A stretch of DNA of 64,000 bases from Candidatus Nomurabacteria bacterium GW2011_GWD2_36_14 (GTDB taxonomy: Bacteria; Patescibacteriota; Minisyncoccia; Phycocordibacterales; UBA9973), in assembly GCA_000991405.1 (NCBI GenBank), contig LBRL01000001.1, positions 222,172 through 286,171 of the forward strand. Reading direction: 5' to 3'. Made by a program: the position numbers and the translations under genes. The number at the start of each line of letters is the position of its first letter. Position 1 is the first letter of the stretch. A model generated the notes under the pieces. That model saw nothing but the letters and a program-made list of their open reading frames with translations, searched no databases and was not told where the DNA came from. Positions 36,843 through 64,000 of this stretch are shown here, piece after piece.

Positions 36843-37802
36843 TTACTCCCACTCAAATCCCCTTCCAAAGTGTCCCCAAGTGCAAGTATCGCGAAATTTG
36901 ACTTGGTCTAATTTCAAGTACTCATGTATACCTCTTGGAGTGAGATCGTAGCCAGATATTTCCGACTCTTGCCCATCTATGACAGCTACCGCCATGACGG
37001 GCTCTTCTTGCCCTATAGCATAAGCGAGCTTTGTATAGACTTCTTTAGCATTATTCTTCTTCAGTAGTTCTACTGCTATCTTGCGAGCCATATAAGCTCC
37101 AGAGCGGTCAACCTTCGTATCATCCTTCCCCGAGAAGGAGCCTCCGCCTATCGTTATTTCTGGACCATAATTATCTACTATTAGCTTTCTTCCCGAGAGG
37201 CCTGTGTCTGCGTCAAATCCTCCCAAGGTCCATTCGCCTGCTGGATTTATAAGATATTTATCAGACTCAATAATACTTTTTACAAGTTCTAGTAATTTAT
37301 CGTTTTTTGTATTTTGAAAGCTAGCGACAACTGTAGTGACCACTCCATCCTTCACTGTTACTTGCGTCTTGCCATCATACGGATAAACTTCAAATATCTT
37401 TTGGCACAAATTCCGAGCAAGGTGGTACTCAAGTGGTAGGTATGAGTCCGTCTCACCTGTAGCATATCCTTTCATAATTCCCTGATCGCCAGCTCCACCA
37501 GTGTCTACACCTTGGGCTATTTGCGGACTTTGTAAAACAATATTTGAAATAATTTTAAAATCTTTACCAACTATATCTTTCACAACTTGCTCTATGTCTG
37601 GGTTTGCTTTTGAAGTTACCTCACCATTTATAGTTACAAGTCCATGCCCACCCATTACTTCTATTGCACAACGACTACTCTTGTCGCCATCTAGATATGC
37701 GTCTAATATACTGTCTGCAATAAAATCACATATTTTATCTGGATGCATTGGACTCACAAACTCTGCTGTCTTTATACTCATGCTTGATTCTTGGCCGAAC
37801 AT
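36843..37802 (-). CDS. metK: S-adenosylmethionine synthetase
   Basis: HPDKICDFIADSILDA..., GGGSFSGKDDTKVDRSGAYMAR. Confidence 0.85.
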   Translation of the reverse strand: MFGQESSMSIKTAEFVSPMHPDKICDFIADSILDAYLDGDKSSRCAIEVMGGHGLVTINGEVTSKANPDIEQVVKDIVGKDFKIISNIVLQSPQIAQGVDTGGAGDQGIMKGYATGETDSYLPLEYHLARNLCQKIFEVYPYDGKTQVTVKDGVVTTVVASFQNTKNDKLLELVKSIIESDKYLINPAGEWTLGGFDADTGLSGRKLIVDNYGPEITIGGGSFSGKDDTKVDRSGAYMARKIAVELLKKNNAKEVYTKLAYAIGQEEPVMAVAVIDGQESEISGYDLTPRGIHEYLKLDQVKFRDTCTWGHFGRGFEWE

Positions 37803-37869
37803 TTTTAATAAAATGTTTTAGGCTTAAATTAAAAAATTCTCTATTAAGAGAAAAGATATAGATGACTAG

Positions 37870-37992
37870 TCTTATCTTTCCACCGCGCCTTGCCGTAGCT
37901 TTATGCGTAGGCAGGTTTGTTGGCTGGATTTAGCACCTTGCTTTAGTAGGTTGCTGATGGGTCATTGAGCCAGTTGCTCTCGCCATACTCCT
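37870..37992 (-). promoter_or_regulatory. SAM-I (S-box) riboswitch in the metK leader
   Basis: Reverse complement reads UUAUCAGGAG..GGCGAGAGCAACUGGCUCAAUGACCCAUCAGCAACC...AAGGUGCUAAAUCCAGCC...GGAAAGAUAAGA. P1 pairs UUAUC/GAUAAG. Downstream there is a UUCUCU-UAAU-AGAGAA-U6 terminator-like hairpin. Confidence 0.8.
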
Positions 37993-38108
37993 GATAATTA
38001 ACTATTTAGTTGTAGATAGATTATAGCATAATATTAAAAATTATCTATTTCAGGGTCATTTTACTTTTCTCCCCTTTTTTGTTAATATACGGAAGTGAGT
38101 TTAAACAT

Positions 38109-38183
38109 TCCGTGGTAGCTCAGCGGTAGAGCGATCGCCTGTTAAGCGATTGGTCGTAGGTTCGATCCCTACCCACGGAGCCA
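38109..38183 (+). tRNA. tRNA-Asn (anticodon GUU), CCA encoded
   Basis: Acceptor TCCGTGG/CCACGGA, D-arm GCTCAGCGGTAGAGC, anticodon loop CTGTTAA, T-arm GTAGGTTCGATCCCTAC. Confidence 0.9.
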
Positions 38184-40647: not shown

Positions 40648-41313
40648 CTACTTAATAATTGAGATGGAAAAAATGTATTTATTAAAACAATAGCCAGAAC
40701 CAGCAGGAATAATTAAATTATTTTCTTGCTCAAATTTATCTTCAAAAGATTTGTTTATATTTTTAATAGCAGTAGAAACACTTCGTTCTTCTGAATATCC
40801 AGCTTCTTCTGTTAGTTTAGACATCGTTTTTGGTGATCCTTTTGACAACAATTTTAATATTTCTAGTTTTTTATCACTAACTTTTATTGAATTTTTTGAG
40901 TCTTCCTTAAGAAAAATCAGACCTCGTAAGTCTATACAAACTTTTTGTTTATTATCTTTTTTTGTATACTTTTGTAAAGTAATTGGATTATCTTCTATTT
41001 GATTTTTAAGTAATTCAATTTTTTCTTTTGCTATGCTGGGGGCAATTCTTCTAATTAGTAAATCATCACCTATATTCTCTTCAGAAAAATATTGCTGTTT
41101 ATCTATTAGGATCAGTTTTTCAAGTACTTTCGATAAATTATTTAAGTCTTGCATAGTAACACCATAAGCATTCAATGAATAAAGGGGTATTCTAGTATTA
41201 GAAGAAAAACCAGGAAAACCTTTTTGGTAATTTTCAATAAGGTTTACAACTTGTAACATTTTATCACAGTCTTCTTTTGTTAGTTTAGGTGTATTGATAA
41301 TATATTCTTCCAT
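40648..41313 (-). CDS. DNA-binding protein with C-terminal OmpR/PhoB-type winged helix, no receiver domain
   Basis: VSDKKLEILKLLSKGSPKTMSKLTEEAGYSEERSVSTAIKNINKSF. Confidence 0.45.
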   Translation of the reverse strand: MEEYIINTPKLTKEDCDKMLQVVNLIENYQKGFPGFSSNTRIPLYSLNAYGVTMQDLNNLSKVLEKLILIDKQQYFSEENIGDDLLIRRIAPSIAKEKIELLKNQIEDNPITLQKYTKKDNKQKVCIDLRGLIFLKEDSKNSIKVSDKKLEILKLLSKGSPKTMSKLTEEAGYSEERSVSTAIKNINKSFEDKFEQENNLIIPAGSGYCFNKYIFSISIIK

Positions 41314-41861
41314 ATTAAAGATAATCTCATTTTTTTAGGTTTTTGTCGACAATTTTTTATTTAATTGAGTCAAAGAAATGCGACCTTTTGCGACCCATTA
41401 TATTTATCGATATTTTATAAGACTCTTTAATCTAATAATTTCTTATTGGAATTAAATATACTTCCACAAAATATCTTGTAAATAAATGACATTCTGATCA
41501 TACCCATACTAAAATACCGAGTTTTGCCTAGTCCTAAAATGCCACCTTTTGCCACCCACTCTTCCCGCCTTTTCCCACCCCTTTTCACCTCTAATACATC
41601 AGACTTTTTCAGACTTTTTATAAAAGAATCTATTTATTGTATTTGTCGACAAAAAGAGCTATTATAAAAATACAACGCCTAAACCAGAAATGGCATGGCT
41701 ACATAGGAAACCCACGCAAATAGTAATGGCCTCACAGTCATCACCATTTGCGTGGGTCCATATTCGAAAGAGTATGGGGTGTTCTCGAAAGAGGATATCA
41801 GATGGTCTGTGGGGCCTTTACTGTCTTCATAACCATATTATAAATTAAAAACCCACGCAAA
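41314..41861. promoter_or_regulatory. AT-rich noncoding region with palindromes and direct repeats (candidate operator/iteron-origin region of the element)
   Basis: TTGTCGACAA palindrome twice (about 41341 and 41643). AAACCCACGCAAA twice, forming a 12-bp inverted repeat at 41710-41762. A CCACC(T)TTT pyrimidine-repeat tract. Confidence 0.5.
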
Positions 41862-42848
41862 ATGAAAAAAATACAAATAATTTGTTTAATTGTTTTTTGT
41901 TTTCTTTCTTTTAGTATCGCCCGTGCAGAAACTTTGATTATAAAATCAGTGGATAAAAGAATAGAAGATATTGAAAAATCTCGAGAGAAACTTCAAAAAG
42001 ATATTGAAAATAATTATAAACAAGTTCAAGCTGAATTAAAAAGTTTAAGTGCAAGAATAGACACTAATATAAAAAGTGAATTTTATTGTGTATTACCAAC
42101 TCAAACTTGCACGGAATCTATCTATCAAGGTATTAGAGGAACTGCCATATCGAGTGGTCTTATTCCAGATGCTGGTCAACTTGCTCAATGCAGAGCTAAG
42201 ATTGATGAATATAATACAAAATTACAGGAATATAATAAATGTTTTCAAGATTGGCAAAATAAAAAGATTGGAGATTCGGCTCAAAAAGAATACGATTATC
42301 AATTGCAAGTATATGAATTAAAATCACAATTAGCCTGTATGGATAAAGAAGGACACTATTCGTCTTTCAATAAAATAACTAAACAATGTGAGTGTGTAGA
42401 AGGTTCAACATTCGTCAACGGAAAATGCATAAATCGTATAGATAATCTACTTATGTGCGTAAAAACTTTTGGTCCATTATCTCATTATGATTACGACAAA
42501 GCTGGTTGTGTATGTGATGAGGGTAGTAAATTAGATCTCGAAAAAGATCTATGTGTTGCTGAAACAGAAAAAGTAGTACCTCCCCCAGTAAAAGAAAAAT
42601 CTCCCTATAAGAATAAATTTCAGGAAATTTTACAACAAAAGGAAACTGAACAACCCTTAAAACCCTCTCAAGGGCTTAAAGAAAGTCCCAAGAGCATAAT
42701 TACTGTTGTAGAGGAGAAAGTACCTTCACAGGCTGAAATTACCCCAAATACTTCGCATGATATACAACCTCCAGCTATTACAGGTCCATCAAATGTAACA
42801 TTCTGGCAAAAAATTAAAAAAAACTTCTTGAAAATTAAGTTTTGGTAA
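41862..42848 (+). CDS. Secreted Cys-rich protein with N-terminal coiled-coil (signal peptide)
   Basis: Signal peptide MKKIQIICLIVFCFLSFSIARA and multiple C..C pairs. Confidence 0.5.
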   Translation: MKKIQIICLIVFCFLSFSIARAETLIIKSVDKRIEDIEKSREKLQKDIENNYKQVQAELKSLSARIDTNIKSEFYCVLPTQTCTESIYQGIRGTAISSGLIPDAGQLAQCRAKIDEYNTKLQEYNKCFQDWQNKKIGDSAQKEYDYQLQVYELKSQLACMDKEGHYSSFNKITKQCECVEGSTFVNGKCINRIDNLLMCVKTFGPLSHYDYDKAGCVCDEGSKLDLEKDLCVAETEKVVPPPVKEKSPYKNKFQEILQQKETEQPLKPSQGLKESPKSIITVVEEKVPSQAEITPNTSHDIQPPAITGPSNVTFWQKIKKNFLKIKFW

Positions 42849-43597: not shown

Positions 43598-44572
43598 ATG
43601 GCAAAAGAAGAAAAGCAGATTATCGAGAATAATTCAAAAAATGGTGTAAATGAAAAGATACCAAATAATGAAGATTCTGCTCAAAATAAGAAAGTCGAAG
43701 AAGAAATATCTCCTCTTAAAAAATTATTAAAGAAGAGTGATGTTTTGCTTATGTTATACCCAAAAGACATAAATGGAAATTTTTCAGCCAGCATTGATCC
43801 TGAAGATGAAATTTCTATTTATAAACTTTTGAAGGAAAAGAAGGAGAAGAAAAAAGAACTTTTAATTTTATTAGATACAAGTGGTGGTAATGTATATTCG
43901 GCGGTTAAAATAATGGATACATTAAGAACCCAATATAATCAAATAAATATTGCAATACCGCAGGAAGCTAAAAGTTCTGGAACTATGATGTGTTGTGGTG
44001 CTAATAATTTAATAATGAGTTCTATCTCTGAACTTGGACCATTAGATAAGCCAATGATTCATCCTAATGATGAGACAGCAAGAATCTCTGCTTTAGATAT
44101 TATTAAATCTATCGATGGCATGTTGGATACTGCACAACAAAGAGAAAAAGATTTTGCCAAAGAGGTAAATAATGATTTTGGAATACCTATTAAACAAAGT
44201 TTGCAATTAGCAAGTGAATCAATCTCTAAACTAATATCACCTATGTTGTGTAGAGAAGATGTAAAAATCTATAATCAAGCCCAAAGATTACTTGTTATAG
44301 CCCAGAAATACGCCACTGAACTATTAGACGCACATATGTTAAAATATATTGATCGTAAAAAACTTAAAGAGAGAATTATTGATATGACTACTAGGCAGTT
44401 GATATGGGCATATCCTGACCATAGTTTTGCTATTAGACGAGATGAATTGAGAGAATGGTTTTTTATTGTAAAAAATTCTGAAGATGTTGATTATTGGGAC
44501 GAACTTTGGGATAAATTTTATCAAAATATAGGTTATAAAAATAGTAAATTGATTAAATTTTTAGATAATTAA
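43598..44572 (+). CDS. ClpP/crotonase-fold serine peptidase, SDH (serine dehydrogenase proteinase)/S49-like
   Basis: ILLDTSGGNVYSAVKIMDTLR...IPQEAKSSGTMMCCGANNLIMSSISELGPLDKP matches the lhTpGG...A.SaGT.ia.aAdei.M....lGpiDP pattern. Confidence 0.55.
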   Translation: MAKEEKQIIENNSKNGVNEKIPNNEDSAQNKKVEEEISPLKKLLKKSDVLLMLYPKDINGNFSASIDPEDEISIYKLLKEKKEKKKELLILLDTSGGNVYSAVKIMDTLRTQYNQINIAIPQEAKSSGTMMCCGANNLIMSSISELGPLDKPMIHPNDETARISALDIIKSIDGMLDTAQQREKDFAKEVNNDFGIPIKQSLQLASESISKLISPMLCREDVKIYNQAQRLLVIAQKYATELLDAHMLKYIDRKKLKERIIDMTTRQLIWAYPDHSFAIRRDELREWFFIVKNSEDVDYWDELWDKFYQNIGYKNSKLIKFLDN

Positions 44573-63299: not shown

Positions 63300-64000
63300 C
63301 ACTTCATAAATGAAGGTAAGAGATCGATTTCAAATTGAATTATTCCACGAACAGCTTCCGCTACCCGTGCCTTGTTACGACTTATTCCCTGTCACCGAGC
63401 TTACTGTAGGCCCTCCTTCTGGAGAGATTTCGAGTATTCCCGGCTCCCTTGAATTGACGGGCGGTGAGTACAAGACTTGAGAACGTATTCACCGCGGTAT
63501 GTCTGACCCGCGATTACTAGTAATTCCAACTTCATGGGGTCGAGTTGCAGCCCCCAATCCGAACTGGCGCAATTTTTATAGGATTCGCTCAGGGTTACCC
63601 CGTCGCTGCCCGTTGTAATTGCGATTGTATTATGTGTGTAGCCCAAGGTATCAAGGGACATGCTGACCTGGCGTCATCCTCCCCTTCCTCCCCGACCGAA
63701 ACGTACAAATAGTTATAAAGTTTTATAAAGTGTAAAGTTATAAAGTGAATGCAAAATGCATTTTACTTTATGAACTTTATGAACTTTTAACTTTCAACTT
63801 TTATCCGCTTGGGTCGGGGCAGTCTCGTGTGACACTTATAACACACGACGAGGGTTGCGTTCGTTACCCCACTTAAGGGAACAATTCAAACCACGAACTG
63901 ACGACGGCCATGCATCACCTGTCAACTAGTCTTGCGAGGGCCCTGGTTTCTCAGGGCTTTCACGTTGATTTCTAACCTTGGTAAGGTTCTTCGTTTATCG
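63300..64000 (-). rRNA. rrs: 16S rRNA gene, 3' two-fifths (continues past window end); 3' end approximate
   Basis: Reverse complement contains AAGUCGUAACAAGG, UGUACACACCGCCCGUCA and GGAGGAAGG...GAUGACGUCA (universal 1390-1500 and 1175-1200 regions). An AT-rich insertion of about 110 nt lies at 63715-63830. Confidence 0.9.

Follow-up and report, generated by a model that had tools for sequence, protein, structure and literature searches.

The RNA motif LOOT (Rfam RF03000) was among the 224 motifs reported in 2017 by Weinberg et al. (PMC5737381). The Rfam 14 paper pictures it (PMC7779021) and the Rfam 15 and CaCoFold papers include it, none of the three giving it a function, and Rfam types it as a gene/small RNA (sRNA) of unknown function, with a model that ends at helix P4. 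A literature search, with the 2017 supplement outside its scope, found no function for LOOT and no description of a leader position, a pseudoknot, a start-codon copy, or a link to integrases. The c4 RNA of phages P1 and P7, with which LOOT is compared below, blocks translation at the ribosome-binding site and sets heteroimmunity, and its pairing segments are likely to be in loops (PMC12197685). Here, we describe a 548-bp spacer (positions 41314 to 41861) in a 64,000-nucleotide stretch of the genome of Candidatus Nomurabacteria bacterium GW2011_GWD2_36_14, referred to as the window. This spacer, which lies between a regulator gene and a cargo operon, serves a small integrated island as its divergent control region.

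An earlier note on this DNA had read the spacer as a region of iterons and palindromes that resembled either a plasmid-type origin or an operator array. All of the repeats in the spacer are real and nonrandom, and they are of two different kinds: half of the supposed iterons are the stem of a LOOT RNA, and the remainder resemble operators, not an origin. On balance, we favor a divergent control region in which DNA operators are combined with a LOOT leader, and in which helix P2 of LOOT and a copy of its 5' arm at the start codon (a2) gate translation of the cargo. As far as checked, the leader position, the pseudoknot, the start-codon mimic, and the integrase association of LOOT have not been described before.

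LOOT at the start of the cargo operon

The right half of the spacer contains a further member of the LOOT family (Table 1). The match covers model positions 1 to 121 of 121, with an E value of 5.7e-09 (7.1e-11 when positions 41200 to 42000 were searched alone), and the fold has a z-score of −6.5 relative to shuffled sequences. P1 (41677-41699) reads GCCUAAACC-AGAAAU-GGCAUGGC, the conserved CCUAAAC ... GCAUGG internal loop is present, and P3 (41758-77) and P4 (41778-99) both carry GAAA (GNRA) loops. In its basal part, the long and variable P2 pairs 41711-21 with 41746-56, and this is the inverted repeat described earlier: its perfect 12-bp arms (41710-41721 and 41746-41757) were recovered and extend to 19 nt at 89%, while its loop measures 24 nt and not 28 nt. 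The direct repeat AAACCCACGCAAA was likewise found twice, at 41708-41720 and at 41849-41861, where it directly precedes the ATG at 41862; a third, inverted copy lies at 41747-41758 (three matches versus 0.18 expected). The inverted repeat and the start-codon copy, taken previously for DNA iterons, belong to the structured RNA. LOOT begins a few nucleotides after a −10-like box (41660-68) and would form the 5' leader of the cargo mRNA; the genomic context points to a 5' leader rather than to the trans sRNA of the Rfam typing.

Relatives of this locus were collected by pattern scans, which gave at least 120 metagenome loci, at least 119 genome loci, and a few viral-contig matches; family counts rest on the 222 unique LOOT loci with enough flank among the matches listed. 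The Rfam model also matches the homologous elements L340 and L343 and six further loci from the scans. The named hosts are almost all metagenome-assembled genomes of Patescibacteria, from Saccharibacteria, Parcubacteria, and Microgenomates lineages. Hexamers resembling a −10 box are concentrated 6 to 30 nt upstream of the LOOT 5' end (212 loci), LOOT and its downstream gene point the same way in 194 of 210 loci, and 128 of 188 loci have a divergent upstream gene. Where a downstream open reading frame (ORF) was called (198 loci), its start lies a median of 83 nt past the P3 loop, with a tight spread whether or not a2 is present. Clustering of these 198 ORFs gave 124 groups, which include DNA methyltransferases, trypsin-like proteases, and secreted proteins. 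A homologue of the window serine integrase occurs in 74 of 233 LOOT loci, mostly upstream and divergent with its start 128 to 5,800 nt away, and in 33 of the 73 loci having at least 4 kb of upstream sequence. As a separate observation, the P1 module (GCCUAAACC-hairpin-GGCAUGGC) also heads RNAs that do not look like LOOT in IMG/VR contigs (L012, L024, L069, L073, L006, L019, L034, L042, and L089), and a tRNA-like 3' end (GGTTCAAGTCCGGGAGGCTCCA) comes after it in one family; P1 may be a reusable structural module.

The structure extends beyond the Rfam model. Segment b, in the distal part and loop of P2, is complementary to segment b', which lies 3' of P4 (Table 1), and in the window this duplex is worth −24.5 kcal/mol, versus −5.2 kcal/mol for the distal P2 stem drawn by Rfam. 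Duplexes of b and b' from the same locus average 13.0 pairs, compared to 9.4 in permuted loci. Covariation was scored on a sequence-only MAFFT alignment of 120 LOOTs, with pairs mapped from a typical row (L298), the window being out of register with most. The 15 pairs of b:b' were 85.4% paired, versus 71.7% after shuffling and no more than 56% in slid registers; the distal P2 stem of Rfam was 55.6% paired on the same alignment. Double changes were seen at all 15 pairs, and the covariation score of 0.496 (versus 0.239) was reached by none of 500 shuffles. The change within b:b' in L340 is compensatory. Reasoning from the coordinates, b:b' combined with full P2 would leave no linker between the helices, and b:b' combined with pairing of a2 to the P2 3' arm would give a relaxed H-type pseudoknot.

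The copied arm gives the locus a threefold layout, namely the P2 5' arm (a, 41709-20), the 3' arm (a', 41746-57), and a2 (41850-61). The 12-mer shared by a and a2 has no other occurrence in the 64 kb. Defined as a Watson-Crick complement of at least 9 nt to the P2 3' arm, 25 to 330 nt downstream of it, a2 was found in 47 of the 222 LOOT loci, compared with 6 of 1,095 controls in which arms were swapped between loci. In 39 of these 47 loci, a2 ends between −4 and +7 nt relative to an ORF's ATG, and in most of the 47 it ends 0 to 7 nt upstream of the ATG. The P2/a2 sequence itself varies, with 31 different versions among the 47 loci. AAA precedes both the 5' arm and a2, and the farther flanks of the two are unrelated, which marks them as maintained elements and not recent duplications. 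From the window to L340, coordinated changes at two positions (CCCACGCAAA to CCTACGCGAA) involve the 5' arm, the 3' arm, and a2 alike. With a2, the conserved U of GGUC is often paired as well, a base pair missing with the 5' arm. In L127 and L304, a further mimic of the P2 arm lies directly 3' of the ATG, so that two copies bracket the start codon. One P2/a2 sequence, CCGCTACAGTG, occurs in eight loci whose first ORFs span 78 to 352 amino acids (aa) and at least three protein clusters, and, conversely, the DNA methyltransferase cargo family occurs with eight different P2/a2 sequences; leader and cargo are thus shuffled as modules.

The P2 3' arm has two nearly isoenergetic partners, the 5' arm (41711-21) or a2 (41850-61): the calculated duplex energies are −19.5 kcal/mol for a:a' and −19.2 kcal/mol for a2:a'. 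When the 5' arm was blocked, the best fold had 41746-57 paired to 41851-63, a stretch that takes in the first two nucleotides of the AUG, at a cost of only 5.2 kcal/mol over the minimum free energy. In the model that we propose, a2 would occupy the ribosome-binding position of the first cargo gene. With P2 closed, the start region would be free and translation on. Pairing of the 3' arm to a2 would bury the start region, along with the AU of the start codon, and turn translation off. A gate acting in cis on translation is favored, and we infer both the alternation of the pairings and its switch.

The host setting bears on such a gate. The 3' end of the 16S rRNA (window 63333-64000, minus strand) has no CCUCC anti-Shine-Dalgarno (anti-SD) sequence, only 3 of 42 long ORFs of the window have an SD-like motif ahead of them, and 15 of 58 ORFs have a TATAAT-like −10 box that ends exactly 7 nt upstream of the ATG, pointing to leaderless mRNAs. 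Initiation in this Nomurabacteria genome seems to be largely leaderless or independent of SD sequences. Lacking an anti-SD sequence and with SD motifs scarce, initiation is probably determined mainly by the accessibility of the start region, and since SD use is weak, a leadered cargo gene would need an open, A-rich start region, which a2 would provide or withhold. Compared with the bacterial model, the 16S rRNA also has an insertion of 119 nt, at 63650-63838 (minus strand).

Putative operators and the surrounding island

The left half of the spacer holds DNA repeats of a different kind. The 10-bp palindrome TTGTCGACAA, which had been noted as occurring twice about 300 bp apart, is present as O1 and O2 at a spacing of exactly 300 bp (Table 1). 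These are the only two perfect copies in the whole 64 kb, and eight matches with at most one mismatch were found versus 1.74 expected, a number equaled in none of 100 shuffles. The CCACC/TTTT tract (41541-89) was also confirmed, as five CC(A/G)CC boxes at 41541, 41551, 41564, 41574, and 41584 with 10- to 13-bp spacing. Further repeats emerged that had not been listed: the doublets GCGACCTTTTGCGACC (41380-95) and GCCACCTTTTGCCACC (41541-56), with two matches versus 0.01 expected, and the tandem repeat TCAGACTTTT at 41599-41619. On the regulator side, the −10 element ends 7 nt before the ATG, and the regulator mRNA is probably leaderless for that reason.

A motif search in related elements had been suggested, and both palindromes and doublets proved to be kept in the homologous element L340. 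O1 has a counterpart there, TTGTCTACAA, at an equal distance from the regulator start codon, and O2 has one, TTGTATACAA, with nearly identical flanks; L340 thus keeps TTGT-NN-ACAA at both palindrome positions with the center altered. The GCGACC doublet (41380-95) is kept as GCGACCATTTGCGACA, the GCCACCTTTTGCCACCC doublet is unchanged, and L340 holds about ten different doublets of 10-bp units. Between L340 and the window, the regulators are 56% identical, the first cargo proteins 40%, and a membrane protein 74%, while L340 has no HTH_36 gene, a distant integrase (22% identity), and different small helix-turn-helix (HTH) genes. Ten-base-pair doublets are not a LOOT-wide feature among LOOT loci generally. 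Their persistence in L340 despite its differing integrase and HTH genes, together with their absence as a LOOT-wide feature, indicates that the sites travel with the regulator. Palindromes upstream of LOOT are only modestly enriched across the family (arms of at least 6 in 41 of 195 loci versus 14 of 195 shuffled). L161 has three different 11-bp doublets (of the TAAACATAGAA, AATCATACAAT, and ATCTGACAATA types) within 450 nt upstream of LOOT, which recall the doublet architecture of the window, and has no detectable homologue of the 221-aa regulator.

Members of the OmpR/PhoB family bind direct repeats head to tail at 10- to 11-bp spacing. The regulator of the window shows 100% identity to a Candidatus Nomurabacteria protein at NCBI. 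Its C-terminal domain is modeled as an OmpR/PhoB-type winged helix; the regulator family is small (13 representatives), and a search of the regulator profile against PDB sequences gave no significant match. Doublets of the form 6-mer-TTTT-6-mer fit OmpR/PhoB site geometry, and an operator array for the regulator is supported by inference. Tandem direct repeats with an A/T-rich spacer lie near promoters at 41380-95, 41541-56, 41564-89, and 41599-619, and they are expanded in L340. The doublets, which lie about 55 to 130 bp upstream of either promoter, would probably be head-to-tail sites for the 221-aa regulator, and the TTGT-NN-ACAA palindromes, which overlap both divergent promoters, would probably be repressor operators. 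Thus, of the earlier alternatives, operators are plausible given the site geometry, the promoter overlap, and the conservation, and the proteins assigned to the palindromes and doublets are putative binders.

The spacer belongs to an island that runs, in order, from a tRNA-Asn gene through a large serine integrase gene, small HTH genes, the regulator gene, and the spacer to the cargo operon (Table 1), and G+C content is low (26 to 31%) between positions of about 40 kb and 48 kb in the window. One small ORF separates the 120-aa HTH_36 gene from the regulator gene. The first cargo protein is 40% identical to its positional counterpart in L340 and is followed in the operon by two membrane proteins, a ClpP/SDH-like protease, and small ORFs; the protease (43598-44572) best matches PHROG families to which no function is assigned (phrog_21683, E 5.5e-29). 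Genes for a capsid, a terminase, or a Zot-like protein are absent, so the island is not an obvious prophage. A minus-strand ORF within the spacer (41427-41588, 53 aa) was considered as a gene and rejected, since it shares with a 63-aa called gene of L340 only residues encoded by the conserved doublet.

The serine-integrase islands of the window, L340, and L161 seem to be directed at tRNA genes. In the window and in L340 (7139-8844), the integrase gene and a tRNA gene overlap at their 3' ends, the integrase gene of L161 (7901-9487) abuts a tRNA gene with its 3' end, and the L327 locus also has a tRNA gene. No attachment-site direct repeat of at least 10 bp matching the tRNA end was found, and none marks the other end of the island. 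A SAM riboswitch (37869-38000, minus strand) lies upstream of metK (36843-37802) and adjoins the tRNA boundary of the island. In a search for the empty site by way of this flanking gene, the island was present in all 24 metK contigs read, with no empty site or free form.

Table 1. Coordinates of the spacer features and the neighboring genes in the window
Feature	Position	Strand	Description
tRNA-Asn	38109-38183		3' end overlapped by 3' end of the integrase gene
Large serine recombinase, 522 aa	38169-39737		Resolvase, Recombinase, and Zn_ribbon_recom domains
HTH_36 protein, 120 aa	39826-40188		The "RepA_N-like" gene of the earlier note
Regulator, 221 aa	40648-41313	−	N-terminal domain and C-terminal OmpR/PhoB-type winged helix (modeled)
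Regulator promoter-like site	41321-41349	−	−35 TCGACA, 17-nt spacer, TG-extended −10 GATTAT; from a consensus scan
Palindrome O1 (TTGTCGACAA)	41343-41352	none	Overlaps −35 of the regulator promoter
Doublet GCGACC-TTTT-GCGACC	41380-41395	+	Direct repeat, 10-bp period
Array of phased units of about 10 bp	41509-41591	+	Doublet GCCACC-TTTT-GCCACC (41541-56); boxes CCCGCC, CCCACC, and TTCACC
Tandem doublet TCAGACTTTT, 2.1 copies	41599-41619	+	Tandem Repeats Finder (TRF), 100% matches
Palindrome O2 (TTGTCGACAA)	41643-41652	none	Between a weak −35 TTGTAT (41637-42) and a −10-like TATTAT/TATAAA (41660-68) before LOOT
LOOT RNA (Rfam RF03000)	41676-41799	+	cmscan score of 60.8 bits versus gathering score of 46.4
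Segment b (AGTAATGGCCTCACAG)	41722-41737	+	Distal part of the P2 5' side plus the P2 loop; supplies the long-range helix with its 5' strand
Segment b' (CTGTGGGGCCTTTACT)	41807-41822	+	3' strand of the 15- to 16-bp pseudoknot helix, 3' of the Rfam model
a2 (AAACCCACGCAAA)	41849-41861	+	Copy of the P2 5' arm abutting the ATG, complementary to the P2 3' arm (41746-57)
First gene of the rightward operon, 328 aa	41862-42848	+	Hydrophobic, signal-peptide-like N terminus; no family assignment

Weighing the gate against other readings

Several observations weigh against a translational gate under operator control. P2 is a long, stable local hairpin, and a −10-like TATAAAT (41838-44) upstream of a2 could be the cargo gene's own promoter; if it is used, any effect of LOOT would act in trans. 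Moreover, a2 is absent from about 79% of LOOT loci, where start-region complementarity does not exceed that of controls, so the gate would be an output module and not the core function of LOOT. Counts of G-U versus A-C in the a2 pairing do not favor RNA pairing over sequence identity, in loci that had been preselected on Watson-Crick runs. On the DNA side, the regulator of L343 shares the C-terminal domain (63% identity), yet the palindrome at the O2 position of its LOOT promoter is a different one, TTGGTATAATACCAA, and binding of the regulator to either class of site is a prediction from the sequences.

If the gate exists, it would operate in organisms largely without SD initiation, with a pseudoknotted form (b:b' plus a':a2) burying the start codon and the P2 form freeing it. 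A broader claim, that LOOT is no free sRNA but the standard leader of widespread tRNA-integrating serine-integrase islands in Patescibacteria and that P2/a2 is an RNA-only, element-specific gate or "immunity code," is put forward only tentatively.

The strongest rival has LOOT acting in trans as an antisense "immunity" RNA resembling c4, either freed from the leader or ending at a terminator of its own. In this reading, the P2 3' arm would pair with the a2 start region of the cargo mRNA of its own element or of an identical incoming one, and the variable P2/a2 would provide the specificity. The Rfam typing as an sRNA agrees with such a role, as do the 31 P2/a2 types in 47 loci and the association of one type with different cargo, the terminator and fresh promoter past LOOT in some loci (e.g., L066 and L087), and the −10-like box directly upstream of a2 in the window. 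The a/a'/a2 layout also recalls that of c4 in the immI operon, which is a1/a'/a2, with a second identical copy upstream. However, the complementary segment of LOOT is within a stable stem and not in a loop, so that pairing in trans would be slow, and the 64 kb contain just one target copy, which is on the same strand and only 90 nt further downstream. There was no match to c4 in Rfam, and LOOT is nearly always directly before a co-oriented ORF at a constrained distance. We judge this trans-acting alternative unlikely.

It is less likely still that LOOT is a riboswitch-like leader that senses a ligand or protein, with the P1/P3/P4/pseudoknot core binding the factor and P2/a2 being one expression platform among several. 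GNRA loops and a pseudoknot make up a core that is ornate and conserved, its position as a 5' leader is steady, and the alternative pairing is of the anti-sequestor/sequestor kind. Metabolite riboswitches, however, are linked to a pathway, whereas LOOT precedes 124 unrelated clusters among 198 downstream ORFs and is associated with mobile islands, and the helix that would have to switch is very stable.

The proposal of a plasmid- or phage-type origin, with iterons bound by the HTH_36/DnaD_N-like protein and autoregulatory palindromes, is very improbable. Phased direct repeats and palindromes do lie beside genes for small winged-helix proteins, the 120-aa protein matches PHROG replication-initiator and DnaD-like families (E values of 1e-5 to 1e-7), and the cumulative GC skew turns near 42 kb. 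The skew turn is local and coincides with divergent transcription, falling where gene orientation switches. The repeats have units of 10 bp, which are paired and different between doublets and are not 17- to 22-bp iterons at regular spacing. There is no complete Rep initiator: the 120-aa protein is a single HTH domain and the 221-aa protein is of the OmpR type. The gene called adjacent and "RepA_N-like" is in fact two genes away and matches only HTH_36 (E 4.9e-7) and, below threshold, DnaD_N. L340 keeps the repeats without the gene for the 120-aa protein. Comparison of the region with plasmids and phages gave no match, and neither an empty site nor a free form was seen among the 24 metK contigs read.

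Finally, we give almost no credence to the 5' arm, the 3' arm, and a2 being DNA half-sites of an element-specific binding protein and not RNA partners: the three copies are nearly exact and the G-U test does not favor RNA, but they lie inside a covariance-model-supported RNA whose other helices covary, 31 specificities would need as many coevolved proteins while the neighboring proteins are unrelated between loci, and a2 often adds the pair to the U of GGUC that the 5' arm misses.

Comparison with known systems

LOOT came out of comparative genomics in 2017 as an orphan ornate RNA without a function, and this locus and about 220 relatives give it an anatomy that can be tested: straight after a promoter, straight before a start codon, with an extra covarying helix, often divergent from a serine integrase, and in one-fifth of loci with a mimic of its own stem. 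The findings also draw attention to a family of small integrative islands, with their control regions, in a poorly understood group, the Patescibacteria. The window RNA resembles the Rfam family in its full-length match, the P1 loop, the long variable P2, the GAAA-capped P3 and P4, and its patescibacterial host. It differs, as do most collected loci, in being a promoter-proximal 5' leader with an extra 15- to 16-bp pseudoknot strand 3' of P4, and about one-fifth of the loci add the P2-arm copy at the start codon.

For the DNA sites, the likeness is to those of OmpR/PhoB-type regulators (pho boxes, OmpR F1 to F3, the AdeR 10-bp direct repeat, and ToxR TNAAA-N5-TNAAA), which are 6- to 7-bp tandem repeats with an A/T-rich 4-bp spacer and a 10- to 11-bp period. 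The window doublets similarly form arrays upstream of promoters beside a regulator modeled with the OmpR/PhoB fold. Unlike those systems, the window regulator has no receiver domain and carries an unrelated N-terminal domain instead, and the doublets are unlike one another, with binding to them predicted only.

For the RNA, c4 of the immI operon of P1 and P7 offers the likeness of an RNA just upstream of its cotranscribed target with a variable segment complementary to the ribosome-binding region, and in both cases specificity varies between related elements (for c4, PMC12197685). The window has such a complementary segment as well as an identical copy of the ribosome-binding region farther upstream, and 47 of 222 loci across the family show this layout. 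There is no sequence or structure homology between c4 and LOOT, however, and their hosts and elements are unrelated. Moreover, a' of LOOT is the 3' strand of a stem, whereas the c4 segments are likely in loops (PMC12197685), and trans action of LOOT is hypothetical, by analogy to c4.

Translational platforms of riboswitches, RNA thermometers, and hok-type fold-back likewise have one strand that pairs either with an upstream partner or with the initiation region, and in LOOT the two helices are nearly isoenergetic. In contrast to these platforms, the LOOT anti-sequestor is a perfect stem of 11 to 12 bp within a larger ornate RNA, and the sequestered sequence is not an SD sequence, in a host whose 16S rRNA has no anti-SD.

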